Positions 2,232 through 58,546 of a stretch of DNA of 64,000 nt are shown in pieces. The notes under the pieces were generated by a model. The model made no database searches. It saw only the letters and a list, made by a program, of their open reading frames with translations, and was not told the DNA's origin. Source of the DNA: an uncultured Planctomycetia bacterium. GTDB taxonomy: Bacteria > Omnitrophota > Gorgyraeia > 2-02-FULL-51-18. The stretch lies in the NCBI GenBank assembly GCA_964373505.1, contig CAYJVC010000004.1, positions 5,916 through 69,915 on the forward strand, given 5' to 3'. The position numbers and the translations under genes were made by a program. Numbering within the stretch: position 1 is the first letter of the stretch; each line of letters opens with the position of its first letter.

Positions 2232-3383
2232 TCACTGCAAAATAAATTCTTCTCCGCGGCTCAGTTCAACCGTCGGGGCGCTTTCCCGCCCCTTCCGGAA
2301 ATCCTCAAGCTTTCGGATCCGCAGGTCCAGTTTCTTAAAGCTCTTGTCGCTGACCTCGGCATATTTATCTCTGGTTTTATCGAGGGACTCGCCGAGGTCC
2401 GCGAAGCGTTTTTTGAAATTTTCGTAGTCGGCCAGGAACTGCGTGACAAGCTTCAGAATCTCATTGGCCGATTTTTCGAACGAAAAATTGTCATAAGCCT
2501 GCCGGATGATGGATAGAATACCGTAAAGCGAGTAAGGCGAGGCCAAGAGAACCTTCTGCTCGAGCGCTTCGTCCATGAGCTCAGGGGCGTGCCGGTGGAT
2601 GAAACCGAATATTTGCTCGTTCGGGATGAAAAGGATCACGTAGTCCAGCGTCTGCTCTTCCGGGTTGATATACTCTCTTTTTTTGAGTTCTCGCATCCTG
2701 TTTTTGACGTCTTTTATAAAATCATTGAGGCAGCGTTCCTTTTCGTTCCGGTCCTCCGCGTTCATGAACGCTAGGTAATTGTTCAGCGGGAATTTCACGT
2801 CCATATGGACTTTGTGGTGATCGGGGAGCGGAAAAGTGAAATCCGGGCGGGTTGAGAGGGTGTCCTGGGATTTTTCCTTGAAATAGTGAATGCCTTCGCT
2901 GAGATTGGCCGCCGTGAGAATATCCTCGGCCAACTTCGTCCCGAGGGCGCCGCGCAGCTGATTGTTGCCCATGACGGAGCTGAGCTTTTGGGTCGTCTCC
3001 GAAAGGTTGCGGGTCGCGAGCGCTGATTGCGCGAGTTTTTCATCGAGAGTGGCAAATTTATTGATCCGGTCATTTTCGAAATCGTGGATGAGCTTTGTGA
3101 TGCGCTCCAGCTCCTTGGAGAGGCTGTCCACGTGGTGCTCGATCGCATTCCTATTCTGCTCGAGCACGGCCTTGGATTTGAACTGCTCGTGGGTGAAGCG
3201 CTCATTGGCGGTCTGGATGAATCTTTCCGATTCCTGCCTGAGGCGGTTCTCGATCTCGGCGAATTGGCTGCGGATCCCCGATTCGACGGCTCGCGTCTGT
3301 GATCTCAGAAAAAAGCGCAGCGTCAAGAAAAGCGCAAGGCCCCCCAGCGAAACGGCCAACACGAGGAGGAAGGGGCTATCCAT
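2232..3383 (-). CDS. rmuC: DNA recombination protein RmuC
   Basis: 383 aa with an N-terminal TM segment, a long coiled-coil and a C-terminal RmuC nuclease-like region (YVILFIPNEQIF...LASPYSLYGIL). Confidence 0.8.
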   Translation of the reverse strand: MDSPFLLVLAVSLGGLALFLTLRFFLRSQTRAVESGIRSQFAEIENRLRQESERFIQTANERFTHEQFKSKAVLEQNRNAIEHHVDSLSKELERITKLIHDFENDRINKFATLDEKLAQSALATRNLSETTQKLSSVMGNNQLRGALGTKLAEDILTAANLSEGIHYFKEKSQDTLSTRPDFTFPLPDHHKVHMDVKFPLNNYLAFMNAEDRNEKERCLNDFIKDVKNRMRELKKREYINPEEQTLDYVILFIPNEQIFGFIHRHAPELMDEALEQKVLLASPYSLYGILSIIRQAYDNFSFEKSANEILKLVTQFLADYENFKKRFADLGESLDKTRDKYAEVSDKSFKKLDLRIRKLEDFRKGRESAPTVELSRGEEFILQ

Positions 3384-5223: not shown

Positions 5224-6927
5224 CTAGGCGCTTTTTTTGAGAAGTTTTATGAACTCATTTGCGGCAACGGGTTTGCTGATGAGATACCCCTGGGCCTTGT
5301 CGCATCGGTATTTTTTCAGGATCTCCAGTTGTTCCTGCGTCTCAACGCCCTCCGCGATCACCTCCAGGTTCAGGCTGTGGGCCATCGCGATGATCGCGGT
5401 GACGATCGCGGCGTCACCCGGTTTTTTCGTGAGCTTTCTTACGAAGAGGCGATCGATCTTAAGGATGTCGAGCGGAAAGCGCTTCAAGTGGCTCAGCGAG
5501 GAATAACCGGTGCCGAAGTCGTCGATGGCGATGCGCGCGCCCATTCGTTTTAATTCGCGCAGCGTTTTTGAGATCAGCCGCGTTTTTTTCATCAGCACGT
5601 GCTCACTGAGCTCAAGCTGGATGTTTTCAGCATGCCCGCCCATTTTTTTAAGCAGGTCCTTGAGTTGCTGGATCAAGGGTCCTTCCTCCAGCTGGGGACT
5701 TGAGATATTCACCGAGAGCCTTAAGCCTTGGAACCCCTCCCGGTTCCACAACCTCAGCTCCGAAACGGCGGTTTCGAGCACCCATTCGTTGATGGGGACC
5801 ACGAGACCCGTTTCTTCCGCCAGGGGAATGAACTCCGTCGGCGAGATGAGTCCCAGTTCGGGGTGGTTCCAGCGCACCAGCGCTTCCGCGCCCGTGATGC
5901 GGCCCGTCGCCAGGTCCGCCTGTGGCTGGTAATGGATGCTCAATTCGTTTTTTTCCAGCGCGTGCCGGAGATTGTTCTCCAATCCCAGACGCTCAAGCGC
6001 GTGGGAATTCATGGAGGAGGAATAAAGCTGGCAGCTGTTCCGAGGCAAGTCTTTGGAGCGGTGCATCGCAATATCGGCGTTCTTAACGAGGCTTTCGGCG
6101 TCTTCCCCGTCATCCGGGTAGAGGCTGATACCCGTGCTGATCCCCACGACTATTTCCCTTTGATTGATATAAAAGGGGTCCCTGAAGGAATCGGCAATCT
6201 TATCCGCGATCCCCATGGCTTCGCGGGTGTGCTCGACCAAGTTAAGCAAGATCGTAAATCCGGCCCCCCCGATCCGCGCGACACTGTCGGTTTCCGGAAT
6301 GTCTTTGGTGATGCGCCGTGAGGCCATTTTCAAGAGCTCATTCCCGGCCTCGTGGCCCAGCGTGTCGTTGACCCTTTTGAAATTGTCGAGATCGAGCGAA
6401 AGCACGGCGACGAGGTGATTGCTTCCCCGCGCCTGCGCGATGGCCTGATTCAAACGGTCGATAAATAAGACGCGGCTCGGCATTCCCGTGAGCGGGTCAT
6501 AATATTCGAGGTAGTTGATCTGTTGCCGCAGATTTTCCTGGAACTTCTTTCTTTCCACCGCATGGATGAGACAAATGGCCAGCCTTTCATAGCCTTCGTT
6601 CTTCTTCACCAGGTAATCCTGGGCGCCTTTTCGCATCGCCTCCAGCGCGAGCGCTTCGTCGTCGAGGCTCGAAAGAATGACCATAGGGGCATGGGGTGAG
6701 AGGTCCTGAAGCGCCAGGAATGTGTCGAGGCCGTGGCTGTCGGGCAGGTTGAGGTCCACGATCACCGCATCCGCGCCGCCCTTTTTCAGCGCTTCTTCCG
6801 CGGATTTTAAATGTGACGCCACCTCGATGTTGAAAAGAGCCACAGCGCTCTTCTTCAACGCTTGTTTCACTCGCTGGACATCGTAGCTGTTGTCCTCTAT
6901 GAGAAGTACGGTCAAGGACAGTCCCAT
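5224..6927 (-). CDS. response-regulator receiver domain + degenerate GGDEF (GGAGF) + EAL c-di-GMP phosphodiesterase
   Basis: N-terminal REC domain (LLIEDNSYD...DLNLPD). The GGDEF-like A-site reads RIGGAGF. The EAL domain has EALVRW, DDFGTGYSSL and KIDRLFV motifs. Confidence 0.8.
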   Translation of the reverse strand: MGLSLTVLLIEDNSYDVQRVKQALKKSAVALFNIEVASHLKSAEEALKKGGADAVIVDLNLPDSHGLDTFLALQDLSPHAPMVILSSLDDEALALEAMRKGAQDYLVKKNEGYERLAICLIHAVERKKFQENLRQQINYLEYYDPLTGMPSRVLFIDRLNQAIAQARGSNHLVAVLSLDLDNFKRVNDTLGHEAGNELLKMASRRITKDIPETDSVARIGGAGFTILLNLVEHTREAMGIADKIADSFRDPFYINQREIVVGISTGISLYPDDGEDAESLVKNADIAMHRSKDLPRNSCQLYSSSMNSHALERLGLENNLRHALEKNELSIHYQPQADLATGRITGAEALVRWNHPELGLISPTEFIPLAEETGLVVPINEWVLETAVSELRLWNREGFQGLRLSVNISSPQLEEGPLIQQLKDLLKKMGGHAENIQLELSEHVLMKKTRLISKTLRELKRMGARIAIDDFGTGYSSLSHLKRFPLDILKIDRLFVRKLTKKPGDAAIVTAIIAMAHSLNLEVIAEGVETQEQLEILKKYRCDKAQGYLISKPVAANEFIKLLKKSA

Positions 6928-10447: not shown

Positions 10448-11698
10448 TCACCATTTTTCAAGAGCGCGAAGCGTTTTTTCGAATTCGCACGCCGTGTGGG
10501 AACCGGAAATGAAGCTCGTTTCAAACGCCGACGGCGGCACGTAAATCCCATATTCTAGCATCTTATGAAAAAATTTCCTGAATTCTTTTCTATCGGTTTT
10601 CATGACATCGCGAAAATGGACCGGTTGCCGAGCGCTGCAAAAGACCGTGAACATGGAGCCGAGGCTTTGGATCACCGCTTTTTTCTTTCGTCTGCGCAGC
10701 AGGACCCTCGCCTCTTTCAGGAAGGCCTTGGCGCTTTGGCCGAGAGCGGCATAGAAGGGCTTCGAGAGCCTGGAAAGCACCGACCGGCCGGCGACCATGG
10801 AAAGAGGGTTGCCCGAAAGCGTCCCCGCCTGATAAACCGGGCCTGCCGGCGAAAGCGCGTTCATGATCTCTTCCCGGCCGCCAAAGGCGCCGACCGGAAG
10901 CCCGCCGCCGATGATCTTTCCGAGTATCGTCAGATCCGGCTCGATGCCGTAGAGGTGTTGCGCGCCGCCGTAGCCGACGCGAAAGCCCGTGATCACCTCA
11001 TCGAAGATGAGAACCGCCCCCGCTTTTTTTGTTTCGCGTCTCAATCGACTCAAAAATTCTTTTTTAGCCGGGACCAGACCCATATTCGCGGCGACGGGTT
11101 CAACGATGGCACAGGCGATGTCCCGCGCGTTTTTAAAAAAGGCGGAGAGCTGGTCGGAATTATTGTATTCGAGCACCGTGGTCAGGCCGGCCAGTTCCTC
11201 CGGAACGCCGGCCGAATCGGGCGAGCCGAAAGTGGCAAGTCCGCTTCCCGCCTTCACGAGCAGGCTGTCGGCGTGGCCGTGGTAGCAGCCTTCGAATTTC
11301 ACGAGCCGCTTTCGGCCGGTGAATCCGCGCGCGAGCCTCACGGCGCTCATGACGGCCTCCGTGCCGGAACTTGTGAACCTTATTTTTTTGAGCGAGCCGA
11401 AGGCTTTTTGGATCTCTTTGGCCAGCGCCGTTTCGTATTCGGTGGCGGTGCCGAAGCTCGTGCCTCTCGAAGCCTGTTCCCGTATCGCTTTTGAAGTTTC
11501 TTCATCGGCATGGCCGAGAAGGATCGCGCCCCAGGACAGGCAATAATCAATGAGGCGTTTTCCGCCGTTGTCGAAGAGATACGGCCCCAGTCCCTGCCGC
11601 ATAAAAACAGGCTCCCCACCGACGGCCCTGAAGGCACGGACGGGGCTGTTGACGCCGCCGGCGATGCACCGCCGGGCTTGGCTCCAGGCGCGGCTCAC
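10448..11698 (-). CDS. hemL: glutamate-1-semialdehyde 2,1-aminomutase
   Basis: 416 aa with GGVNSPVRAF and LIFDEVITGFRVGYGGAQ motifs. It is class III aminotransferase-like and uses a GTG start. Confidence 0.9.
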   Translation of the reverse strand: MSRAWSQARRCIAGGVNSPVRAFRAVGGEPVFMRQGLGPYLFDNGGKRLIDYCLSWGAILLGHADEETSKAIREQASRGTSFGTATEYETALAKEIQKAFGSLKKIRFTSSGTEAVMSAVRLARGFTGRKRLVKFEGCYHGHADSLLVKAGSGLATFGSPDSAGVPEELAGLTTVLEYNNSDQLSAFFKNARDIACAIVEPVAANMGLVPAKKEFLSRLRRETKKAGAVLIFDEVITGFRVGYGGAQHLYGIEPDLTILGKIIGGGLPVGAFGGREEIMNALSPAGPVYQAGTLSGNPLSMVAGRSVLSRLSKPFYAALGQSAKAFLKEARVLLRRRKKKAVIQSLGSMFTVFCSARQPVHFRDVMKTDRKEFRKFFHKMLEYGIYVPPSAFETSFISGSHTACEFEKTLRALEKW

Positions 11699-11814
11699 CC
11701 CACCCCCTGCTTTCTTCCGCCATCCATAGTTTCAATCCCACGATTGGCGGAATGATTCGTCAAAGACGAATCAAAAAATCCGCGGGATTTTTTAGAAGCA
11801 GGGGGTGGGGTCAT
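11695..11814 (-). repeat. family-A palindromic intergenic element (copy a) with 39-aa linker micro-ORF MTPPPASKK...RKQGVG
   Basis: Arms CCCCACCCCCTGCTT / AAGCAGGGGGTGGGG. The micro-ORF ATG overlaps the hemB TGA (ATGA) and its TGA overlaps the hemL GTG (GTGA). Confidence 0.75.
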
Positions 11815-33181: not shown

Positions 33182-34407
33182 GCCTTGTTTGACCTTTCGA
33201 GTTTGAATTTGTTGTGCAAAAGCCGGACCGCTTTTTCAGCCTCGCTTTTTTTGACGACGCAGGAGATCTTGATCTCGCTGGTGGAGATCATCTCGATATT
33301 GATCCTGTTCTTTCCGAGCGTCTCAAACATCGCGGCCGCAACACCCGCATGGCTTCGCATGCCGATGCCGACCACGGAGACCTTTGCGATATTCGGATCG
33401 AGCAGCACTTCTTTTGCGCCGATCTTCTTCGAGGCGGCTTTGAGCGCGTGCACGGCCCGGAGAGCGTCGCCTTTGGGCACCGTGAACGAGATGTCCGTGT
33501 TGAAGGCGGACTTCCCGATATTCTGGATGATCATGTCCACATGGATCCCCTTGTTCGCAAGGGTCTTAAAAATGCCCGCCGCGATGCCGGGCCGGTTGGG
33601 GACGCCTCGCACAGAAATTTTAGCTTCGTTTTTATTTAAAGTTACGCCGCGGATCAATACGTCTTCCATTGAGCTATCCTCCTTCACGATCCATGTGCCT
33701 TCGTTTTTTGTAAAACTGCTCCTGACATGAAGCGGAATATGGTGCTTACCGGCCAACTCGATAGACCGCGACTGCATGACCTGTGCGCCGCTCGAGGCCA
33801 TTTCCAGCATCTCCTCATAACTGATCTTCCGGATTTTCCTGGCTTTTTTCACAAGGCGCGGGTCCGTGGTGAATATTCCCTCGACATCCGTGTAGATCTC
33901 GCAGGCGTCGGCCTCCAGCGCCTTTGCAAGCGCAACCGCGGTTAGGTCGCTGCCGCCGCGGCCGAGTGTGGTGATGTCATTTTGCGGGTTGACTCCTTGA
34001 AAGCCCGCCACGATCACAACCTTCTTATTCTTAAGCTCCCGTAAAATACGTTGGGTATTGATATGGCGGATGCGCGCGCAGGTGTGCGCGGGGCTTGTGC
34101 GAATGCCCACCTGCCAGCCCGTAAATGAAACAGCCGCGCTCCCGAGCTTCTCGAGCGCCATCGCCAGAAGCGCCATGGAGACCTGCTCCCCCGTGGACAT
34201 CAGAACATCGAGTTCCCGCTCGGAAGGTTTTCGTGTGATCCGGGAAGCGAGCCCCAAAAGTTCGTCCGTCGTGTCGCCCAACGCACTCACCACGACCACG
34301 AGGCGGTGCCCTTTTTTTCGGGTGTCATCGATCCGGCGGGCGACATTTTTGATCCGGTCGGGATTTGCGACGCTTGAGCCGCCGAATTTCTGCACGATCA
34401 GTTTCAT
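33178..34407 (-). CDS. lysC: aspartate kinase
   Basis: MKLIVQKFGGSSVANPDRIKNVA start and C-terminal ACT domains. The track ORF includes a 15-aa extension that is really the family-A element. Confidence 0.9.
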   Translation of the reverse strand: MKLIVQKFGGSSVANPDRIKNVARRIDDTRKKGHRLVVVVSALGDTTDELLGLASRITRKPSERELDVLMSTGEQVSMALLAMALEKLGSAAVSFTGWQVGIRTSPAHTCARIRHINTQRILRELKNKKVVIVAGFQGVNPQNDITTLGRGGSDLTAVALAKALEADACEIYTDVEGIFTTDPRLVKKARKIRKISYEEMLEMASSGAQVMQSRSIELAGKHHIPLHVRSSFTKNEGTWIVKEDSSMEDVLIRGVTLNKNEAKISVRGVPNRPGIAAGIFKTLANKGIHVDMIIQNIGKSAFNTDISFTVPKGDALRAVHALKAASKKIGAKEVLLDPNIAKVSVVGIGMRSHAGVAAAMFETLGKNRINIEMISTSEIKISCVVKKSEAEKAVRLLHNKFKLERSNKA

Positions 34408-34490
34408 CCCACCACCTCTTTTCGAGGCGGCATAGCCGCCTCCGCGTGACAAACTGAAATTGAAAATTTCAAAAGAGGGGGTGGGGTCAT
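34404..34490 (-). repeat. family-A palindromic element (copy b) with 28-aa micro-ORF MTPPPLLKFSISVCHAEAAMPPRKEVVG
   Basis: Arms CCCACCCCCTCTTTT / AAAAGAGGTGGTGGG. Its ATG overlaps the apgM TGA and its TGA overlaps the lysC ATG (ATGA at both ends). Confidence 0.75.
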
Positions 34491-35632
34491 TTCAAAAAAT
34501 GCTCCATGAGCGGGTGTCCTTCAGGGAATTGAAGTTTGCTTTGAGCCGCCGTTTTTTCGTTGAAGCCCGGGTGCTTTTCCGCGGCGAATCCGTGCCCCGC
34601 GATGAGGAACGGCACCGGCCCGTGAGCAGCCGAACGGCTCGCGGAGGATGTCGCCGTGTCCGTGCAAACGAGCAAACGGTGATCCCCCAGGTTTTCCAGG
34701 CACTTCGTGGCAATTCCCACAACCTGCGCATCAAAGCGTTCGATCAGACGAATTTTTGTTTTCCAGGGATCGGTTTCGGGTTGTACCTGGTCTGCGGCCA
34801 TGTACACGAACGTGAGTTCATGGTTTCGGAGCGCCTTTTCAAGGTCGTCGACGACCTTGAAACCCAGGGACAGTCCGAGCCCCTTGGCAAAATCAGCCTG
34901 AGAAAATACGGCGCCGTCCACGCCAAAGCGATCCTTGAAACGGGGAAGCCGGGGCCGGCGGCCCTGCCCCCAGGGCCAGATCATGTTCGCCGGATTTTCC
35001 CCGAGGTCTATCCTGACCCGGTTGATCTCATGGTGCTCCAGAACGGTCTTGGATTTTTCCATGAGACTTGTGATGACCTCGGCGTCTTCCCCCTTCGGGA
35101 GCACCTTGGCCATTTTCTGACCGATCGCCCGTGAAGGCGGAACGCACTCCAGCTCATCGAGACTTTCGGCCTTTTCAGGGTCACGGATCATCAGGATATT
35201 TTTGTAGCCTTCTCTCGGATAGAACTTGATCTGCGGGCTTGAGAGTTTTTTATTGAGTTCCTCGATCAAGAGTGAGGACTCCTCGGGCGGAATGAAGCCT
35301 GCGCTTACATCTGCCAGAAGCCCGTCCGAAACCGTGACAAGGTCGCAGCGGAACGCGATCTCATTGTCGTCCTGGGAGATACCGGCTGCGGCGGCCTCAA
35401 GCGGCGCAACCCCCGTGTAAAATTCTTCCGGAGGGTAACCCAGAATGGCCATCGCCGCGACGTCGCGTGTTAGGGCCAATTTAGGCGACGTGAAGATCGC
35501 CGAACCCACACGGCCTTTTTTTGCCAATTGATGCAAAAATGGGGCTTTTGCCAGTTCCATCGGCGTGCGGCCGCCCAGAGCCTCGACCGGATCGTCCGTG
35601 GCCGCTTCGCAAACCAACACCGCGTATTTCAC
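34487..35632 (-). CDS. cofactor-independent phosphoglycerate mutase (archaeal ApgM type); by context a candidate non-orthologous homoserine kinase
   Basis: 381-aa ApgM-family protein that starts with GTG. It is embedded between lysC and thrC with hom upstream, and no classical thrB is present in the block. Confidence 0.6.
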   Translation of the reverse strand: MKYAVLVCEAATDDPVEALGGRTPMELAKAPFLHQLAKKGRVGSAIFTSPKLALTRDVAAMAILGYPPEEFYTGVAPLEAAAAGISQDDNEIAFRCDLVTVSDGLLADVSAGFIPPEESSLLIEELNKKLSSPQIKFYPREGYKNILMIRDPEKAESLDELECVPPSRAIGQKMAKVLPKGEDAEVITSLMEKSKTVLEHHEINRVRIDLGENPANMIWPWGQGRRPRLPRFKDRFGVDGAVFSQADFAKGLGLSLGFKVVDDLEKALRNHELTFVYMAADQVQPETDPWKTKIRLIERFDAQVVGIATKCLENLGDHRLLVCTDTATSSASRSAAHGPVPFLIAGHGFAAEKHPGFNEKTAAQSKLQFPEGHPLMEHFLK

Positions 35633-35715
35633 CCCATCCCCTCTTTCTGAGGCGCCAACGGCGCCTCGGCGTTGTACGCTGAAATTGAAAAATTCAAAAG
35701 AGGGGATGGGGTCAT
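35629..35715 (-). repeat. family-A palindromic element (copy c) with micro-ORF MTPSPLLNFSISAYNAEAPLAPQKEGMG
   Basis: Arms CCCCATCCCCTCTTTT / AAAGAGGGGATGGGG. It makes an ATGA overlap with the thrC stop and a GTGA overlap with the apgM-like start. Confidence 0.75.
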
Positions 35716-41506: not shown

Positions 41507-43309
41507 TTAGGACTCGATCTTTAAAGCGGCCAGGAATGCCTCTTGTGGGATCTCCACTTTGCCGAACTGTTTCATGCGCTTCTTGCCCTCTTTCTGCTTT
41601 TCCCACAGCTTGCGTTTTCTCGTGATGTCGCCGCCGTAGCATTTGCTCGTGACGTTTTTTCCCATGGGCCTTACGGATTCGCGCGCGATGATCTTTCCCC
41701 CGATCGCGGCCTGGATGACCACCTCGAACATCTGCCTGGGGATGAGCTCCTTTAGTTTTTCGCAGAGCGCGCGGCCCTTTGTTTGGGCCTTATCGTGATG
41801 CACCATGGAACTGAACGAATCGCAGATCTCCGAGTTGATGAGGATGTCGAGTTTCACGACGTCACTATCCCGGTGCCCCTTCACCTCGTAGTCCAGCGAG
41901 CCGTAACCCTTCGAAATGGATTTGACGCGGTCATAGAAATCAACGATGATCTCGGCCAGCGGAAAGTCATAGATCACTTTGACCCTCTCCTCGTCGATAT
42001 GCTCGGTGGAAATGTACCGACCGCGGCGTTGCTCGCAGAGCTCAAAGATCGCGCCGATGCAATTTTGGGGAATGAGGATGGCGGCATGTACGAACGGCTC
42101 AAGGATTTCCCGGACCTGGCTCGGATCCGGCATCTTGGAAGGATTGTCCACTTCAACGAGGTTTCCGTCTAACTTCCGCACCTTGTAGACGACGCTGGGC
42201 GTGGTGATGACGAGACTCATGCCATATTCGCGCTCCAGTCTTTCCTGCACGATCTCCATATGGAGAAGTCCGAGGAATCCGCACCGGAAGCCAAACCCGA
42301 CGGAAGCCGAGTTTTCTATTTCATAAACGAACGAGGAGTCGCTCAAGGACAGTTTTTCTATCGAGTCCTTCAGCGCCTGGAAATCCGCAGAGTTGACCGG
42401 ATAAATGCCGGCAAACACGAGCGGGCGGATCTTCTTGTAACCCGGGAGCGCTTCCTCCGTCGGACTCAGCGCGTCCGTGACGGTGTCCCCGTTTTCCACC
42501 TCTTTTGCGTTTCGGATGTTGCAAGAGACATAGCCGACTTCGCCGGGCCCGAGGGATTCACAAGCTGTAGGTTTGGGCGTCAGGTTGCCGATGCCCAACA
42601 CATCGTAGGTTTTCCCCGCGGCCAGCATCTTTATTTTCATGCCCTTTTTCAGGACCCCGTTGAACACACGAACGTACACGATCACGCCCTGGTATGCGTC
42701 GTACTGGGAGTCAAAAATAAGCGCCTGAAGCTTTTTAGCCGGGTCCCCTTCCGGCGGCGGGATCACCTCCACCACCCGATCCAGGATTTGGGTGATGCCG
42801 GTCCCCATCTTGGCGCTGGCGAGCAGGATCTCATGCTCGTCGATTCCGAGATATTTGTGGATCTGTTTTTTTACCTTTTCCGGTTCGGCCGTGCCGAGGT
42901 CTATCTTATTGATGACGGGAATGATCTCGAGGTCATTCTCCATCGCCAGGTACAGATTGGCCACGGTTTGCGCCTCGACGCCCTGACCGGCGTCCACAAG
43001 AAGCAGCGCCCCCTCGCAGGCGCGCAGGGACTTGGCGACCTCGAACGTGAAGTCCACGTGGCCCGGCGTGTCGATCAGGTTGAGCGTGTAGTTCTTGCCG
43101 TCTTTTTTGGAATGATAATTGATCTTGACCGCGCTCGCCTTGATCGTGATGCCGCGCTCCTGCTCCAGCGCCATATCGTCCAGGAGCTGGTTGTGGAATG
43201 TGCGGCTGTCAATGGCGCCGGTGTGCTCGAGGATACGGTCGGCTAGCGTGGACTTGCCGTGATCGATATGCGCGATGATCGAAAAATTACGGATATGCGC
43301 CTGCCTCAT
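41507..43309 (-). CDS. lepA: elongation factor 4
   Basis: 600 aa with a GTPase start IRNFSIIAHIDHGKSTLADR and a LepA C-terminal domain. Confidence 0.95.
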   Translation of the reverse strand: MRQAHIRNFSIIAHIDHGKSTLADRILEHTGAIDSRTFHNQLLDDMALEQERGITIKASAVKINYHSKKDGKNYTLNLIDTPGHVDFTFEVAKSLRACEGALLLVDAGQGVEAQTVANLYLAMENDLEIIPVINKIDLGTAEPEKVKKQIHKYLGIDEHEILLASAKMGTGITQILDRVVEVIPPPEGDPAKKLQALIFDSQYDAYQGVIVYVRVFNGVLKKGMKIKMLAAGKTYDVLGIGNLTPKPTACESLGPGEVGYVSCNIRNAKEVENGDTVTDALSPTEEALPGYKKIRPLVFAGIYPVNSADFQALKDSIEKLSLSDSSFVYEIENSASVGFGFRCGFLGLLHMEIVQERLEREYGMSLVITTPSVVYKVRKLDGNLVEVDNPSKMPDPSQVREILEPFVHAAILIPQNCIGAIFELCEQRRGRYISTEHIDEERVKVIYDFPLAEIIVDFYDRVKSISKGYGSLDYEVKGHRDSDVVKLDILINSEICDSFSSMVHHDKAQTKGRALCEKLKELIPRQMFEVVIQAAIGGKIIARESVRPMGKNVTSKCYGGDITRKRKLWEKQKEGKKRMKQFGKVEIPQEAFLAALKIES

Positions 43310-43392
43310 GCGGGTTTCACCCCACCCTCTGATCGGCTCATCTTTGATGAACCGATCGCTCTAAGATCGTTGCGATCAGGCGGTGGGGTCAT
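43306..43392 (-). repeat. family-A palindromic element (divergent copy d) with micro-ORF MTPPPDRNDLRAIGSSKMSRSEGGVKPA
   Basis: Arms CCCCACCGCCTGATCG / CGATCAGAGGGTGGGG. It makes ATGA overlaps with the phosphohexomutase stop and with the lepA ATG. Confidence 0.7.
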
Positions 43393-47162: not shown

Positions 47163-48151
47163 CGCCGCGAAAGAAGCGCCGCCTCCTCGGAAAGACCTTT
47201 TTTACAGATCAGCGTACCCTGTTTTGTCTGTATCACGATCAGGTCCTTGACTCCCAGCGTGATGACAGGCGTTGGGTGGTGATTCAAGATCAAAGAGCCG
47301 TGCGTGTCATCCGTGTGGCAGACCCCTCGGACAAGATTATCGTGTCTGTCACGTTCACCCTTCCGGTGAAACATGTCCCAGCTTCCCATGTCGCACCAGT
47401 CCATTTTGGTTTTGATTACGACGAGGTTCTTCGCTTTTTCGAGAAGCGCGTGATCGATGGAAATTTTGGGTAAGCCGGTGTAACGAAGCCGTCCAAATTC
47501 CGGCGCCTTTTTTTTCATGGCCTCGAGAAATGTGCCGATCCGCCACGTGAAGATCCCCGCATTCCACAGAAAACGCCCTGATCTCAGGTACTGCGCAGCC
47601 TTCGCGTGGCCGGGTTTTTCGGCAAAATGTTTTACCCTATAAGCCGACGGGCAGGCGGACATCGCCGCGCCCGCCTCGATATAGCCGTAACCGACGGCGG
47701 CGAACGTGGGTTTGATCCCCACGGTCACGAGCGATCCTTCTTTTTGGGCGAGGGCGATGGCGTCGCTTAGGGTTTTTTGAAAAAGCTTTTCGTTCCGGAT
47801 GAGATGGTCTGCCGGAAAAAAGGAAACCACGGTTTCGACGCCAAAACGTTCCCCGATCGCGCGGCAGGAGAGATAAATGGCGGCCGCCGTGTTTCTCCTT
47901 GACGGCTCAAGGATGAGGTTTTGTTTTTTTAATCCCGGAAGTTCGGCCTGAATGAGCCCCGCCTGCTTCCGGGTCGTCACCACATAAACGTTATTCTTCG
48001 CATAGACCCGCAGGAGTCTTTGATAAGTTTTCTGCAGGAGAGATTCCTTATTGTCGAGGCGGATGCTGTATTTGGGAAATTTCTTGTGGGTCAGCGGCCA
48101 GAACCGCTCCCCGGGCCCACCCGCTAGGATGACCGCCTTGGCGCTAGTCAT
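47159..48151 (-). CDS. mannose-1-phosphate guanylyltransferase-like nucleotidyltransferase
   Basis: AVILAGGPGERFWPLT sugar-nucleotidyltransferase N-terminus. The start is uncertain between M1 and M10. Confidence 0.65.
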   Translation of the reverse strand: MTSAKAVILAGGPGERFWPLTHKKFPKYSIRLDNKESLLQKTYQRLLRVYAKNNVYVVTTRKQAGLIQAELPGLKKQNLILEPSRRNTAAAIYLSCRAIGERFGVETVVSFFPADHLIRNEKLFQKTLSDAIALAQKEGSLVTVGIKPTFAAVGYGYIEAGAAMSACPSAYRVKHFAEKPGHAKAAQYLRSGRFLWNAGIFTWRIGTFLEAMKKKAPEFGRLRYTGLPKISIDHALLEKAKNLVVIKTKMDWCDMGSWDMFHRKGERDRHDNLVRGVCHTDDTHGSLILNHHPTPVITLGVKDLIVIQTKQGTLICKKGLSEEAALLSRR

Positions 48152-48938
48152 GGATGGCCTTTGCGAACGGGCGCACAAATTTTTTTGCGAACGCCTCGGC
48201 GTTCAAATGAAGATGCGCGGCCAGCGTGTTTACCAGGGCGCTGCCTACGATGACGCCGTCGGCGATCTTTGACACCTGCTTCGCACGGGCAGGATCTGAG
48301 ACGCCGAAACCCACGCACACCGGGAGTGCCGTCATTTTCTTGATAGCGGAAATATTTTTACGGACGCTCTCCGTCACAAGGTGATGGGCGCCGGTTACGC
48401 CGGTCAGGGAAACGTAGTAAATAAAACCCCTCGAGGCTCCTACGATAAGCCGGCGCCGTGCCCCGGTGCTTGTGGGCGCCAAAAGATACACCAGGTCCAC
48501 GCCGTTCCTGCGCATGAGCGCGCGGATGTCTTTTTCCTCGTCCGGCGGTAGGTCCGGCACTATCAAACCGTCCACGCCGGAGTCGCGCGCGGCCTTCGCG
48601 AAATGAGCCGGGCCCATCGCGAGGATCGGATTGAGATAGCTCATGAGGAGGATCGGGGTGCTTGATTTCCTGCGGGCTTTTTTCACAAGCGCTAAAATTT
48701 TACGCAGCGTCGTGTGTCGCTTGAGCGACCGGTTGGAAGCCTCCTGGATGACGGGCCCGTCCGCCAAGGGGTCTGAAAAAGGCACCCCCAGCTCAATGAG
48801 GTCCACCCCCGCCTTCTCCAATGTGCCGATCAACTCCCCGGTCATTTTGAGGCTTGGGTCGCCGGCCGTGATAAAAACGACAAGCGCCTTTTTCCCTTCC
48901 TTTTTCAGCGCTTTGAATTTTTTTTCTATACGATTCAC
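48144..48938 (-). CDS. trpA: tryptophan synthase alpha chain
   Basis: 264 aa that starts with GTG and is typical of TrpA (LVVFITAGDPSL...). Confidence 0.9.
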   Translation of the reverse strand: MNRIEKKFKALKKEGKKALVVFITAGDPSLKMTGELIGTLEKAGVDLIELGVPFSDPLADGPVIQEASNRSLKRHTTLRKILALVKKARRKSSTPILLMSYLNPILAMGPAHFAKAARDSGVDGLIVPDLPPDEEKDIRALMRRNGVDLVYLLAPTSTGARRRLIVGASRGFIYYVSLTGVTGAHHLVTESVRKNISAIKKMTALPVCVGFGVSDPARAKQVSKIADGVIVGSALVNTLAAHLHLNAEAFAKKFVRPFAKAIHD

Positions 48939-49021
48939 CCCACCCCCTCCTTTTGAGACAACGATGTTGTCTCAATGCTATGCATCAAAATTGAAAATTT
49001 TAAAGGAGGGGGTGGGGTCAT
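48935..49021 (-). repeat. family-A palindromic element (copy e) with micro-[31 protein letters not shown]
   Basis: Arms CCCCACCCCCTCCTTT / AAAGGAGGGGGTGGGG. It makes an ATGA overlap with the trpB stop and a GTGA overlap with the trpA start. The AAGGAGG Shine-Dalgarno site lies in the 3' arm. Confidence 0.8.
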
Positions 49022-50223
49022 AGATGCAAAACCTTTGAAACGCTTTCCATGTCTTTGTCGCCCCGTCCCGAGAGGCAAACCACGATCACTTCTTTCTTTT
49101 TAAAGCGTGATTTGTGTTTGGCCAGATACCCGAACACGTGCGCGGTTTCAAGCGCCGGAATGATGCCCTCGGTTTGGCTTAAAATTTTCATCCCCAAGAG
49201 CGCTTCCTTGTCGGTCGCCGATACGTATTCCGCGCGGCGGATCTTTTTCAGGTACGCATGTTCAGGGCCTACGCCGGGATAGTCGAGACCCGCCGAGATC
49301 GAGTGCGCGAGTTTCACCTGTCCGTCCCGGTCCTGCAACACCTCGCTTTTTGACCCGTGCAGGACGCCGATCTTGCCCAAAGACAGTGTCGCCGAATGGC
49401 GGTCCGTGCCCAGGCCATGGCCTGCCGCCTCCACACCGATAAGTTTCGTTCTGCTTTTAAGGAAAGGATAAAAAAGGCCGATGCTGTTCGACCCGCCGCC
49501 CACGCAGGCGATGCAGGTGTCGGGCGAACGAACCCCCAGAGGCCTTAACTGCGCAATCGTCTCTTTTCCGATCACCGATTGAAAATCCCTCACCATCACG
49601 GGGTACGGATGAGGCCCGATCACCGAGCCAATAATGTAATGCGTGTCCTTCACATGAGTGACCCAGTCGCGGATCGCCTCGTTCACGGCGTCTTTCAAGG
49701 TCCGCGAGCCGGATCTTACAGGGATCACGCGCGCGCCGAGGAGTTTCATGCGGAATACGTTGAGCGCCTGCCGCTCGATGTCCACCTGCCCCATGTAAAC
49801 ATCGCAGGGAATACCGAAAAGAGCGCACACGGTCGCGGTCGCAACGCCATGCTGCCCGGCTCCCGTTTCGGCGATCACGCGCTTTTTGCCCATGCGAAGC
49901 GTCAAAAGCGCCTGCCCAATCGTGTTGTTGATCTTGTGGGCGCCGGTGTGGAGAAGGTCCTCCCGCTTAAGATAGACTTTTTTCACGCCGAGATATTCGG
50001 CCAGGTGCCGGGCTTCGGTGAGCGCAGTCGGGCGACCGGCAAAATTCCTCAGGTAATGGCTGACTTCCTTTTTGAATTTCGGATCGAGCCGAGTGCTCCG
50101 GTAAGCTTTCTCAAGCTCTTCCAGCGCGGCCATCAAGGTTTCGGGCACGTACTTCCCTCCGTACGGCCCGAAGTGGCCGCGCGAGTCCGGAACTTTGGTT
50201 CGGCGGTTACGCTGATCTGGCAT
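49018..50223 (-). CDS. trpB: tryptophan synthase beta chain
   Basis: 401 aa with a PLP-binding region HTGAHKINN. Confidence 0.95.
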
Positions 50224-50920
50224 TTTGGATGAATTCTTTCAAAAGTTCATGGTCCTTGATCCCCGGGCGCTTTTCCACGCCGCTCGAGACGTCCACGCCG
50301 TAGGGTGAAAGTGTCTGAATGGCTTTCCGGACGTTGCTGGGACGAAGCCCCCCTGAAATAATCACTGGTTTTAGTCGATCTCGAAGGTCACGGGTCCTGC
50401 CGCTCCGAGAGCCCATTTTTTGCAAGTGTTTCCCTTGCAAAAAATGGGCGCCCCTCTCCGCGTCACCCGTGACCTTCGAGATCTCGGCTGACAACATTTT
50501 CCAATTGAAATTTTGCCCGCTTCCTCCGTATCGGCCTGTTACTTGTGTGTCAAATAAATAGGCGTCCGCGGGAAAGCCGAGAAGATTTTCCAAATGAAAC
50601 CCTTCATCGACGCGAAAAGCCTTTATGACTTTACAACAACGGAGCTTTTTTGTATAGGCCCGGGTTTCGTCCCCGTGAAGCTGCACCGCGCTTAAGCCGC
50701 AGAGCCGGGCTATCATCTCCACTTTCCTGGGGTTTTCGTTCACGAAAACCCCCACCGTCGTGACAAAGGGTCCGAGTTTTCCTATGATCTCTTGTGCCCT
50801 TTTTGGGGTCAGCCGCCGCGGGCTTTTGGCGAATACGAACCCGAGCGCGTCGGCCCCACACCCAAGTGCGGCGCGCGCGTCGGGCAAATTCGTGATCCCG
50901 CAGATCTTAACCCTGACCAT
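50207..50920 (-). CDS. trpF: phosphoribosylanthranilate isomerase carrying an in-frame ~37-aa insertion derived from a family-B palindromic element
   Basis: VKICGIT...[16 protein letters not shown] then an extra [36 protein letters not shown] before the conserved PVIISGGL. Confidence 0.8.
50377..50487 (-). repeat. family-B palindromic element (copy B2) inserted in-frame within trpF
   Basis: CGATCTCGAAGGTCACGGGTCCTGCCGCTCCGAG...CGCGTCACCCGTGACCTTCGAGATCTCG with ~20-bp perfect inverted arms. Length is a multiple of 3. Confidence 0.75.
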
Positions 50921-52717: not shown

Positions 52718-53286
52718 TATTGGGTCAGACGGAGGAAATTTTTCAGGATCTCTTTGCCGGACTGCGTCAGGATGGATTCAGGATGGAACTGGACTCCGTA
52801 AACCGGGTATCGTTTGTGTTGAAGGCCCATGATCTCCTTTTCCCGGGTCTCGGCCGTGATCTCCAGCTCTTTCGGCAGGCTTTTTCTTTCGACCAAAAGC
52901 GAGTGGTACCTTGTACCGATGAACGGATTATCGATATTTTTGAAGATCCCCTTCCCGGTGTGGTGAATCCGCGAGGTTTTTCCGTGCATGAGCCTGGCCG
53001 CACCCACCACTTTTCCGCCGTAGGCTTCGCCTATGCACTGATGCCCCAGGCAGACGCCGAGGATCGGGACCTTGTCGCCGAGCTTTTGGATGATCTGGAG
53101 GGAAATGCCGGCCTGCTTCGGGTTGCCGGGGCCCGGCGAGATCACGATGCGGCTTGGTTTCATTTTTTTGATCCGGGGTATCGTGATTTCGTCATTCCTG
53201 AAAATTTTAAGTTCCTGCCCCATTTCGCCCAGGTACTGCACGAGGTTATAAGTGAACGAGTCATAATTGTCGATCATCAGGATCAC
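52717..53286 (-). CDS. trpG: anthranilate synthase component II (glutamine amidotransferase)
   Basis: [18 protein letters not shown]...GVCLGHQ. I place the start at GTG, overlapping the micro-ORF TGA; the track ORF reads on into the repeat. Confidence 0.85.
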
Positions 53287-53438
53287 CCCATCCCCTCCTT
53301 TTGAGACGACATTGCCCCATCCCCCGTTTGAATGATTGCTTCGCAATCAGTTCGCGGAGCGAACCAAACAGGGGATGGGGTTGTCGTCCCAATGCTTTGC
53401 ATAAGAATTGAAAATTCTAAAGGAGGGGATGGGGTCAT
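53283..53438 (-). repeat. family-A element (copy f) with nested internal duplicate; 51-aa micro-ORF MTPSPPLEFSILMQSIGTTTPSPVWF...SSQKEGMG
   Basis: Outer arms CCCCATCCCCTCCTTT / AAAGGAGGGGATGGGG plus an inner CCCCATCCCCTGTTTG / CAAACGGGGGATGGGG pair. ATGA overlap with the trpE stop and GTGA overlap with the trpG start. Confidence 0.75.
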
Positions 53439-56271: not shown

Positions 56272-56984
56272 ACTTGAATAGCTTCTTTTAGCGTGAATTT
56301 GTTCTCATAAAGCGCTTTGCCTATCACGACCCCCCGGATGTTCTTTTTCTTGAGTTTCATCAGCGCTTCGAGGTCCTTCAGCGAACTCACGCCCCCGGAG
56401 GCGATAAGGTCGAGGTTCACGGCTTCACTGGCGTTTTTTATCTCTTTGATGTTCAACCCGGAAAGAGCCCCGTCCTTTGAAATATCCGTGTAGATCACGG
56501 TTTGCCCGCCGAGCTTTTCAAATTCTTTGATGAATTGGACGGCATTTATTTTTGTGACCTTTGTCCAGCCGTCCGTCGCGATGAGCCCGTCCCGTGCATC
56601 GACGCCGATGATCGCCTTCTCCTTAAGCTCGGACACGAGCTCTTTTATGAATCCTCTGTCGAGACACGCCTGGGTGCCGAAAATGACCCACCCGGCGCCC
56701 ATCGCCAGATACCTAGCCGCGGTTTGGAGGCTGCGGATGCCGCCTCCCACCTCGACCGGGGTCCGCACGGCGTTTAAGATCCGCTCGATCGTCTTTATGT
56801 TTTTCGGCTCGCCTTTCAGCGCCCCGTCCAGGTCCACCACGTGGATCCTGGACGCCCCCTCCTCTTCAAAGCGCCTGGCGATATCTTCCGCCTTTTCCGA
56901 ATAGATCTTTTCGGCCTTGAAGTCTCCTTGGAAAAGACGGACAACCTTACCGTCCTTGAGGTCGATCGCGGGGATAGGGATCAC
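56253..56984 (-). CDS. hisA: 1-(5-phosphoribosyl)-5-[(5-phosphoribosylamino)methylideneamino]imidazole-4-carboxamide isomerase
   Basis: Starts with GTG: (M)[16 protein letters not shown]... Confidence 0.9.
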
Positions 56985-57067
56985 CCCGCCCCCTCTTTCC
57001 GAGGCGCCAGCGGCGCCTCGACGTTGCAGGTTGAAATTAAAAATTTTGAAAGAGGGGGTGGGGTCAT
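56981..57067 (-). repeat. family-A palindromic element (copy g) with micro-[31 protein letters not shown]
   Basis: Arms CCCCACCCCCTCTTTC / GAAAGAGGGGGCGGGG. Its ATG lies 6 nt after the hisH TAG stop and its TGA overlaps the hisA GTG. Confidence 0.75.
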
Positions 57068-57073
57068 GCGAGG

Positions 57074-57688
57074 CTACTTAAGACGGACGAAGTTCTTGAC
57101 GATCCGAAGGCCCGCGTTCTGGCTTTTCTCGGGATGGAACTGGGTCGCAAAGATATTATCGCGCCAGACGCTGGAGCAGAATCCAAACCCGTAATCGGTG
57201 GTGGAGGAGACCCAGCTTGTGTCCTGGGGGGCGCCGTAGAACGAATGCACAAAATAGAAAAAATCGCCCGGACGGATCCCCTGGAAAAGCGGACAGTCTT
57301 TTTTTTTGAGGTTCAACGTGTTCCAGCCCATGTGCGGGATCTTGAGTCTTACTCGGAATTTTTTCACCTTTCCGCGGATGATCCCAAACCCGGCGGACTT
57401 GCGCTTGCCTTCATTTTCCTCGCTCTCCTCGAATAAAAGCTGCAGCCCCAAGCACAAGCCAAGATAGGGCGTGCCCCCAAGCACTTTTTTACGGATTACG
57501 TCCACCAGCCTCCGCTTCTCAAGCTCGCGGACAGCCGCCGTAAAGGCACCGACACCGGGCAGCACGATCATTTCGGCGTTGGCGATGTCGGATCGGGACG
57601 ACGTGATCCTGGGTTTGGCCCCGCCCTTCTCGAACGCCTTCTCGACGCTGCGGAGATTGCCCATCCCATAATCCACAATAGCAATCAT
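57074..57688 (-). CDS. hisH: imidazole glycerol phosphate synthase glutamine amidotransferase subunit
   Basis: MIAIVDYGMGNLRSV...GVCLGLQ. Confidence 0.95.
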   Translation of the reverse strand: MIAIVDYGMGNLRSVEKAFEKGGAKPRITSSRSDIANAEMIVLPGVGAFTAAVRELEKRRLVDVIRKKVLGGTPYLGLCLGLQLLFEESEENEGKRKSAGFGIIRGKVKKFRVRLKIPHMGWNTLNLKKKDCPLFQGIRPGDFFYFVHSFYGAPQDTSWVSSTTDYGFGFCSSVWRDNIFATQFHPEKSQNAGLRIVKNFVRLK

Positions 57689-57828
57689 TCGACAAACCAG
57701 TCTGGATTCGACGGGTCCTGCCGCTGCGGCAGCCCCAATGGTTCCCGCGTCACTGCGGAGCGCTGCGAGCGAATGGGGCGCCCCGCCTCCGCGTCACCCG
57801 TCGAATCCAAAATCTCTGCGAAAATCAT
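57685..57828 (-). repeat. family-B palindromic element (copy B3) filling the hisB-hisH gap, spanned by a 47-aa linker ORF MIFAEILDSTGDAEAG...NPDWFVE
   Basis: Arms GATTCGACGGGTCCTGCCGC / CGCGTCACCCGTCGAATC. The linker ATG overlaps the hisB TGA (ATGA) and the linker TGA overlaps the hisH ATG (ATGA). Confidence 0.7.
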
Positions 57829-58451: not shown

Positions 58452-58546
58452 GTCAGCCCCGTTTTTTCACCCCATCCCCTATTTCGTGACGCAAAGCGTC
58501 ACCTTTTGATTTGCTTTGCAAATCAAGAAATAGGGGATGGGGTCAT
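58452..58546 (-). repeat. family-A palindromic element (degenerate copy h); micro-ORF truncated to MTPSPIS
   Basis: Arms CCCCATCCCCTATTTC / GAAATAGGGGATGGGG with a different internal loop. ATGA overlap with the hisD stop. hisB uses its own ATG 20 nt downstream. Confidence 0.65.

Follow-up and report, generated by a model that had tools for sequence, protein, structure and literature searches.

Mycobacterial interspersed repetitive units (MIRUs) are short, seemingly mobile repeats at operon junctions, where they insert at start codons with an internal open reading frame (ORF) at -4-nt spacing, and they are thought to limit their impact on downstream expression through translational coupling (PMC12548453, section 11, citing Supply et al. 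1997). Rickettsia palindromic elements (RPEs) and the ORF-bearing transposable elements of the miniature inverted-repeat type (MITEs), namely ERIC/IRU, YPAL and the 107-bp Correia element, are small palindromic mobile repeats that contain contiguous ORFs and occur in frame within genes (PMC10969869; PMC2229807). Here we analyze a 64,000-nt stretch of contig CAYJVC010000004.1 (GenBank assembly GCA_964373505.1; this whole stretch is hereinafter designated the window, and positions are counted from its first letter), in which an 80-nt palindromic element lies between trpB and trpA. As in MIRUs, an ORF internal to the repeat overlaps the stop and the start codon of the flanking operon genes, a functional resemblance for which MIRUs are compared by description. 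Judging from sequence comparison and RNA folding models, we consider it likely that this is a non-autonomous, MITE-like element that entered an ancestral ATGA overlap and duplicated TGA, and that ribosomes are now relayed from trpB to trpA through a micro-ORF spanning the element.

The two genes end a trpD-C-F-B-A operon on the minus strand, with trpE and trpG directly upstream (trpG is placed by its start and by synteny with the related genome L100, introduced below; the Pfam scan spanned trpD to trpA). The trpB ORF (49018..50223, -) scores 598 bits against the TIGR00263 equivalog (cut-off 392) and contains a PALP domain, and the trpA ORF (48144..48938, -) scores 265 bits against TIGR00262 (cut-off 102) and matches Trp_syntA at 2e-88. 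Between them the minus strand reads ATGA[80 nt]TGA. The trpB stop (49018-49020) is the TGA of ATGA, and the ATG of the same four letters (49019-49021) opens a micro-ORF of 28 codons (48935..49021, -), whose TGA (48935-48937) has its TG in common with the present GTG start of trpA (48936-48938). Of the duplicated target, the trpB stop represents the 5' copy and the micro-ORF stop the 3' copy. The TrpB C-terminus can be aligned with those of the relatives L100 and L104 as far as the stop, and the TrpA N-terminus aligns with the MNRI... of homologues. L103, a separate Logan assembly of the same organism (ERR4904390), has an identical element-trpA junction. An earlier note on this DNA, made from the letters alone, had described the stop-start overlaps on both sides and the 28-codon micro-ORF; both agree with the ORF list and the translation, and the minus-strand sequence that it quoted for 48935-49021 is identical to the window.

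The inserted element proper (48938..49017, -), whose length we denote X (here 80 nt), runs from CCCC to GGGG between terminal inverted repeats. Its 5' arm CCCCACCCCCTCCTTT (49002..49017, -) includes the anti-Shine-Dalgarno sequence CCTCCTT, and its 3' arm AAAGGAGGGGGTGGGG (48938..48953, -) contains the Shine-Dalgarno (SD) sequence AAGGAGG (48946-48952), a 7-nt spacer and a terminal G (48938) that completes the new GTG of trpA. The SD sequence is part of the terminal inverted repeat, and because the arms are perfect complements, either orientation of the element would put the same 16 nt before the start. AAGGAGG is fully complementary to CCTCCTT of the 5' arm, and the SD is buried in the stem, as the earlier note had it, together with the start codon; the distance of 8 nt that it gave between SD and GTG holds when counted from the last base of the SD, the spacer itself being 7 nt. 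The fold places three hairpins inside the arms: an A/T hairpin AAAATT-TTC-AATTTT (48987..49001, -), which the alignment also marks as the most conserved interior block of the subfamily designated family A below, a small hairpin GATGC-ATA-GCATT (48974..48986, -), and an inner G/C hairpin GAGACAAC-ATC-GTTGTCTC (48955..48973, -), extendable to 10 bp by flanking TT/AA. The last of these is the hairpin TTGAGACAAC/GTTGTCTCAA of the earlier note, which exists with 10 bp and a 3-nt loop rather than with 9 bp. That reader had the anatomy right and did not see that the element is a mobile, MITE-like insertion.

The case for insertion comes from related genomes in which the site is empty. The closest named match of TrpA is Omnitrophica bacterium RIFCSPHIGHO2_02_FULL_51_18 (Candidatus Omnitrophota; L100, GCA_001804125.1), with 74% identity, and this genome and a second relative, L104, are syntenic with the window over the his-trp-lepA region. 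Their trpB and trpA overlap by 4 nt, as GTGA in L100 (...gcacctGTGACGCGA) and ATGA in L104 (...gctctATGACCCGC), compared with ...gcatctATGA[80 nt]TGAATCGT in the window. Deletion of the 80 nt and one TGA yields ATGAATCGT, which encodes MNRIEKKF, to be set beside VTRIENKF in L100 and MTRIQKKF in L104; MNRI(D/E)KKF is the start of most TrpA homologues. Because removal of the element with one TGA restores the overlap of the relatives, the sequences demonstrate an insertion with a 3-bp TGA target duplication. By this comparison, trpA originally started at what is now the ATG of the micro-ORF, and the new GTG, which falls exactly at the conserved N-terminus of TrpA, is composed of the last G of the element and the duplicated TG. 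At trpE/trpG, L100 has ATGATTTTAATGATCGAC versus ATGA[X]TGATCCTGATGATCGAC in the window, and at the hisA start ctccATGATTGCT versus cgcATGA[X]TGATCCCT, the TGA there not being the upstream stop. The element is absent from the orthologous trpB/trpA junction in L100, L104, L121 and L122, and a terminal-motif check of the fetched loci found no family copy in the relatives of the L100-L104 set.

TrpA homologues with long N-termini (P0058 and P0018) were considered as possible in-frame copies. The extension in L122 is a gene-caller artefact at a ATGAATAG overlap, and the 54-nt in-frame TrpA extension in L121 has no recognizable element. The 18-codon N-terminal extension of L121 (Omnitrophica CG1_02_46_14, 3001-3058; MNSVFDNPSQSSPAKGGV-NRID...) starts from an ATGA overlap with trpB and includes CCCCAGCC...GGGCGGGG with TAA/TAA flanks, possibly the remnant of a short element that has decayed at the trpB/trpA junction.

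The trpA copy belongs to a repeat family, as the earlier note had proposed: with 0.46 occurrences of the arm motif expected, the window has 14. Nine copies, eight outer and one nested, lie within the 64 kb, all on the minus (coding) strand, at gene junctions and in the sense orientation, and the termini CCCCAYCCCCT...AGGGGRTGGGG (ATGACCCCAYCCCCT...AGGGGRTGGGGTGA) are common to all of them. Five copies with the interior of the trpA copy (hereinafter designated family A) lie at the starts of aspartate kinase, the gene at 35629, trpA, trpG and hisA; the copies before the hemL-like, lepA and hisB genes and the nested copy have unrelated interiors between the same termini. In seven of the eight outer copies the upstream stop is the TGA within the leading ATGA, and likewise in seven of eight the ORF from the leading ATG is open as far as the TGA that overlaps the downstream start. 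Family A is known from the window and one Logan contig only.

Besides the trpA copy, family A comprises a copy before aspartate kinase (34404..34490, -), which has partial decay of its 3' arm and an ATG as the downstream start, a copy at a further gene junction (35629..35715, -), the copy at the hisA start codon (56981..57067, -), where the upstream stop is a TAG 9 nt ahead of ATGA, and the copy at the trpE/trpG junction (53283..53438, -). The inner hairpin loop of this last copy has received a nested element of 66 nt with CAA/CAA flanks (53315-53380, -), and the micro-ORF of the host copy is still open, with 51 codons; excision of the 66+3 nt leaves 80 nt that align without gaps with the other family-A copies. 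Among the copies with other interiors, one with X = 113 (11695..11814, -) contains a 39-codon micro-ORF ending on the GTG of the hemL-like gene, and one with X = 73 (58467..58546, -), located after the hisD stop, is the only copy of 1 mod 3 length; its ORF is closed after 7 codons, and the hisB start lies 18 nt beyond. In the copy at the PGM/lepA junction (43317..43392, -; X = 69) the ORF continues to the ATGA of lepA (43306), and close relatives of this copy are found in L024. When the PGM/lepA copy is removed (window 43306-43392, -), 11 nt (ATGAAACCCGC) are still extra when the junction is compared with the L100 overlap (ATGA); either more than a simple insertion took place at the lepA junction, or its ancestor had a 7-nt spacer. 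Elements occupy about 8 of the approximately 51 co-directional junctions of the window, whose minus strand holds about 52 of the 58 genes of a crude gene call, and unoccupied NTGA 4-nt overlaps are also present, for example near 62350, 59771, 33180, 17933 and 12787.

The RNA of the trpA element is predicted to fold into a three-way junction of -50.7 kcal/mol, compared with -25.2 +/- 3.5 kcal/mol for shuffled sequences (z = -7.2; none of 200 shuffles as stable), and AAGGAGG lies in its outer stem of 16-17 bp. Across the five family-A copies, 93.9% of pair cells hold a standard pair, versus 46-56% in controls with slid partners, and 11 pairs, distributed over all four helices, are altered on both sides. 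The outer helix is 96.5% paired with 3 such pairs, helix 2 (the A/T hairpin) 93% with 2, helix 3 (the small hairpin), the weakest of the four, 76% with 3, and helix 4 (the inner G/C hairpin) 100% with 3. The Y/R position of the outer stem has C in the trpA and hisA copies and T in the trpG and 35715 copies; because its state does not track the similarity of the interiors, the switch between C-G and U-A arose more than once. The compensatory changes are supportive of a conserved fold, with n = 5 and the structure taken from one of the five copies, and they would fit a constraint on a DNA hairpin as well as one on the RNA.

To place these copies in a wider family, metagenomes were scanned with a pattern of TGA-flanked arms, which returned 16 loci (GC 0.47-0.68) with diverse interiors of two or three hairpins each; because the pattern demanded TGA flanks, this set is uninformative on target diversity. 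A scan of genome contigs with the bare arms CCCCAYCCCCT N40-70 AGGGGRTGGGG was too generic and returned many unrelated hairpins from many phyla; relatives among the matches listed are L024, L030, L054 and L067. Viral contigs scanned with the specific pattern gave 0 matches. Arm-bounded hairpins without TGA flanks, often CCCCATCCCCTAAAGGGG..., are frequent among the matches listed (L001-L099), where their hosts include Chitinophagaceae, Cytophagales, Planctomycetia, Anaerolineae and Actinomycetota; they may represent a wider set of elements with a common terminal motif, or convergence. In all, related copies are present at 20 further loci, and element lengths in the family range from 63 to 113 nt.

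Frame and length were examined in 20 non-redundant groups drawn from the window and at least five other metagenomes. Reading from the flanking NTG, one enters a frame free of stops in 19 of the 20 groups, compared with 8.1 expected from interior shuffling, and the other two sense frames are open in 7 and 10 groups. X is 0 mod 3 in 12 groups, 2 mod 3 in 7 and 1 mod 3 in a single one, and TGA is preceded by A in 12 groups, by G in 4, by T in 4 and by C in none. This bias toward open frames and toward lengths of 0 or 2 mod 3 can be read as two ways of keeping translation intact. With X = 2 mod 3, the trpA case, the reading frame ends on the 3' TGA that overlaps GTG, which amounts to a relay, and with X = 0 mod 3 it amounts to an in-frame insertion directly after the start codon. 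The nearly absent third class, 1 mod 3, would carry ribosomes over the new start out of frame; its sole case, before hisB, contains an early stop and is set apart from the start. A canonical GGAGG or GAGG beside the core is found in family A and L117, both 2 mod 3, and in 1 of the 12 groups with X = 0 mod 3.

Fusions of the 0 mod 3 type are found in sucD (L107; 27 codons in frame at an internal Met-Thr ATGACC), in a gene for an OGG-like glycosylase (L067/L120; 27 codons in frame, with the element in the opposite orientation) and in the C-terminal tail of panD (L110/L114); the copy in L111 is intergenic. In every translated context the repeat is read ACC CCA YCC CCT (T-P-P/S-P), and this frame is also used in four contexts that have no frame-fixing start codon, namely the nested copy, SucD, the OGG-like protein and the PanD tail. 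Taken together, the biases in frame and in length argue for real use of the displaced start codons.

The cost of opening the trpA initiation region (SD..GUG+3) was calculated from constrained partition functions, an equilibrium treatment that ignores kinetics and ribosome sterics. It amounts to 28.9 kcal/mol in the free mRNA, 8.8 kcal/mol with a ribosome footprint at the trpB UGA and 4-6 kcal/mol with a ribosome on micro-ORF codons 1-7, and to 7.7 kcal/mol around the AUG of the reconstructed ancestral junction. Because the terminal repeats pair in the mRNA, a stem of about -50 kcal/mol would keep SD and GTG closed except when a ribosome comes from trpB. We propose that the first 9-11 nt of the 5' arm are melted when a ribosome terminates at the trpB UGA, that the same ribosome or a successor may reinitiate at the overlapping AUG and read through the element, and that upon termination at the UGA overlapping GUG the exposed SD would hold it for reinitiation at trpA. 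An uncoupled 30S subunit should fail to start trpA. The relay would make the insertion nearly invisible to the operon, so that trpA stays coupled to trpB. The element brings its own SD, start-codon base and ORF, so that trpA is probably still translatable after the insertion, and its coupling to trpB would probably be tighter than before. The idea of coupling through the element fits the frame statistics, the depletion of the start-disrupting length class and the thermodynamic model. Stalling on the polyproline of MTPPPP was also considered as the opener of the stem and, with TPSP encoded by half of the copies, rejected.

Extended to the family, the proposal becomes more tentative, and we rate the following generalization somewhat short of an even chance. 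Family A would be a MITE lineage specialized on the ATGA overlaps of essential operons, supplying in either orientation an initiation module of SD, 7-nt spacer and G together with an 80-nt relay, so that insertion would be non-polar and downstream translation would depend strictly on upstream translation; the superfamily would then consist of a relay class (2 mod 3) and an in-frame fusion class (0 mod 3).

Several points weigh against these proposals. We infer the translation of the micro-ORF, the coupling route and a mobilizing enzyme, and the claims about translation draw on sequence statistics and equilibrium folding. The source sequence is a metagenome-assembled genome (MAG), the 20 groups are partly related (family A accounts for four), and TGA flanks were demanded in the search. 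All five family-A copies have their interior in one orientation, though either would supply SD and G, which we leave unexplained and which is not significant at n = 5. Arm complementarity could be kept at the DNA level, by a requirement for transposase ends or by hairpin-templated repair, rather than for the RNA. Conserved internal hairpins are not expected in a MITE that arose by simple deletion, nor is it obvious why a translation-friendly element should need them. A search for long-range pairs of the terminal motif in the window and the fetched loci found no autonomous insertion sequence (IS) or transposase with matching ends, and the MITE label draws on the inverted repeats (16 nt and perfect in the trpA copy), the 3-bp duplication and the occurrence of small multicopy units that contain no transposase gene. 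Two other identities were tried for the element and rejected: REP/REPIN, as it starts with CCCC, is 80 nt long, has a 3-bp duplication and has no GTAG/CGTC tag, and an IS200/IS605-derived palindrome-associated transposable element (PATE), as terminal inverted repeats are present and CAA flanks the nested copy on both sides.

The same sequences can be read in other ways. If the element were tolerated selfish DNA with an idle micro-ORF, trpA would be started by direct 30S binding, through breathing of the stem or its melting by the trpB-terminating ribosome, or after RNase processing, with REP-like protection of the upstream mRNA as its effect at most. The folding model accommodates this, since a ribosome at the trpB stop alone brings the opening cost near the ancestral value; REP and ERIC hairpins within operons are known to stabilize upstream mRNA (PMC2229807), and the peptide is not conserved across subfamilies except in the parts dictated by the terminal repeats. 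We nevertheless find it unlikely, for it leaves the open frames in all groups but one, the near-absence of X = 1 mod 3 and the ORF-preserving nested insertion unexplained. A further step down in probability is a mover of a different kind, an HUH/Y1 single-strand enzyme of the IS200/IS605 or REP-RAYT (REP-associated tyrosine transposase) type, for which the left TGA would be the target, the right TGA the element's own and the hairpins the recognition structures. Such an enzyme would suit the several conserved hairpins with compensatory changes, the location of all nine window copies on one strand, the TGA to the left of eight of the nine (the metagenome copies, for which TGA was required, add nothing) and the failure to see a transposase partner in the window or the fetched loci. 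It is hard to reconcile with ends that, other than those of IS200/IS605, are true terminal inverted repeats and pair mutually, with the CAA/CAA flanks of the nested copy, which fit a 3-bp duplication better than a fixed right end, with the absence of the GTAG/CGTC tag described as typical of REPs in PMC3733652, and with the occurrence of both orientations relative to genes in other genomes.

Two further readings assign the locus a function of its own, and we regard both as very improbable. A regulatory RNA specific to trp and evolved by the host (an attenuator, a riboswitch or a protein-binding site), setting the TrpB:TrpA ratio, would account for the position between two subunits of one enzyme, where stoichiometric coupling matters, and for the strong and conserved fold. 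A trp-specific regulator is all but excluded because copies precede the starts of other genes too, namely aspartate kinase, hisA, trpG, the hemL-like gene and lepA; the orthologous junction is empty in the four relatives named above, target duplications are present, and the junction shows neither an above-noise match to Rfam nor a terminator or promoter. Specifically, Rfam at gathering thresholds finds only tRNAs in the whole window, a permissive Rfam scan of 48880-49080 gives generic miRNA-hairpin noise of at most 26 bits versus thresholds of at least 40 bits, ARAGORN finds no tRNA in the element, and promoter and terminator scans find no site inside it (no G/C hairpin with a U-run, no -35/-10 hexamers). 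A reading of the conserved A/T block as an IHF site or a promoter finds no support in the promoter scan or on inspection. Least credible of all is a functional small protein (MTPPPP...KEGVG) encoded by the micro-ORF: the ORF is open in most outer window copies, and its N- and C-terminal residues are common to them, yet these residues are exactly those set by the terminal repeats, the interiors are unrelated, and the lengths range from 28 to 51 aa.

Other palindromes lie in the same region. At the hisB/hisH junction (57688-57828, -) a second, unrelated palindromic family has a like arrangement: a 47-codon micro-ORF whose ATG overlaps the hisB stop (ATGA) and whose TGA overlaps the ATG of hisH (ATGA), in an element with ATGATT at both ends and a predicted fold of -73 kcal/mol. 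Inside trpF (approximately 50377-50483, -) there is an in-frame palindrome with 50-nt arms, 80% complementary, and a predicted fold of -74 kcal/mol, related to the hisB/hisH element by the core CGGGTGACGCGGAG...CGGCAGGACCCG; TrpF is 237 aa in the window versus 211 aa in L100, that is, about 26 residues longer. L100 has its own palindrome of about 200 nt in the hisB-hisH spacer (1605-1824) and a 'gtcatcctgagcaaagcgaaggatctc' motif in the hisD-hisB spacer (930-978), and family-A elements are absent from it. The L103 contig begins inside the trpA element (1-81), and its PGM/lepA copy lies about 250 nt from the other end (5631-5880, of 5880); the break inside the trpA element fits a fragmentation of short-read assemblies by these repeats.

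If the relay reading is correct, a mobile element spares its host by rebuilding translation signals, whereas inteins, IStrons and splicing instead remove the inserted sequence, and this would explain the build-up of repeats in the tightly packed biosynthetic operons of small-genome uncultivated bacteria. Junctions with serial -4 overlaps, relay ORFs of 28-51 codons and a ribosome-binding site (RBS) in a stem of -50 kcal/mol would be natural coupling experiments, bearing on the unresolved debate between RNA unfolding and ribosome reinitiation. The 80-nt unit could serve synthetic biology as a compact part that enforces strict coupling. For annotation, such elements would break assemblies, as in L103, and mislead gene callers into N-terminal 'MTPPP' extensions and wrong starts in Omnitrophota MAGs.

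Compared with described systems, the trpB/trpA junction is in one respect a case of classical translational coupling, in which either RNA unfolding or reinitiation at ATGA/TGATG operates (reviewed in PMC12548453; PMC6728339). A structured downstream RBS would be opened by the upstream ribosome, and a 4-nt stop/start overlap occurs, here twice in series. In contrast to the classical case, a mobile element brought the structure and the second overlap ready-made, and a short relay ORF is interposed. With REP, BIME and REPIN sequences the family has in common that abundant G+C-rich hairpins are co-transcribed in operons, possibly stabilizing mRNA. REPs, however, are 20-40 bp long and have a GTAG or CGTC tag (PMC3733652), and they are RAYT-linked, have no target duplication and lie after stop codons, where they do not rebuild start sites. 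The X = 0 mod 3 relatives, in frame in sucD, the OGG-like gene and the panD tail, resemble RPEs, which differ in host phylum and in being about 100-150 bp long and Rickettsia-specific; compared by description, they are not said to rebuild an RBS or a start codon. The trpA copy, for its part, is located between genes and forms a stop-start relay with X = 2 mod 3 rather than an in-frame fusion. ERIC, Correia and YPAL elements duplicate TA, versus 3 bp here. MIRUs are direct, often tandem 40-100-bp repeats of Mycobacterium that have neither terminal inverted repeats nor a hairpin fold, whereas the Omnitrophota element is a single palindromic unit with a 3-bp duplication, whose terminal repeat both supplies the SD and a base of the start codon and buries them in a stem. 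A literature search returned no description of the motif, of repeats in Omnitrophota or of a MITE rebuilding an RBS or a start codon, the MIRU and RPE analogies being all that it offered. Within that literature, a palindromic MITE whose terminal repeat is an SD-spacer-start module appears to be undescribed, as do a TGA target within NTGA starts, two translation-preserving length classes and the occurrence of such elements in Omnitrophota. The mycobacterial MIRU is the closest functional counterpart of the trpA element, and the in-frame relatives of that element behave like RPEs and other ORF-bearing MITEs.

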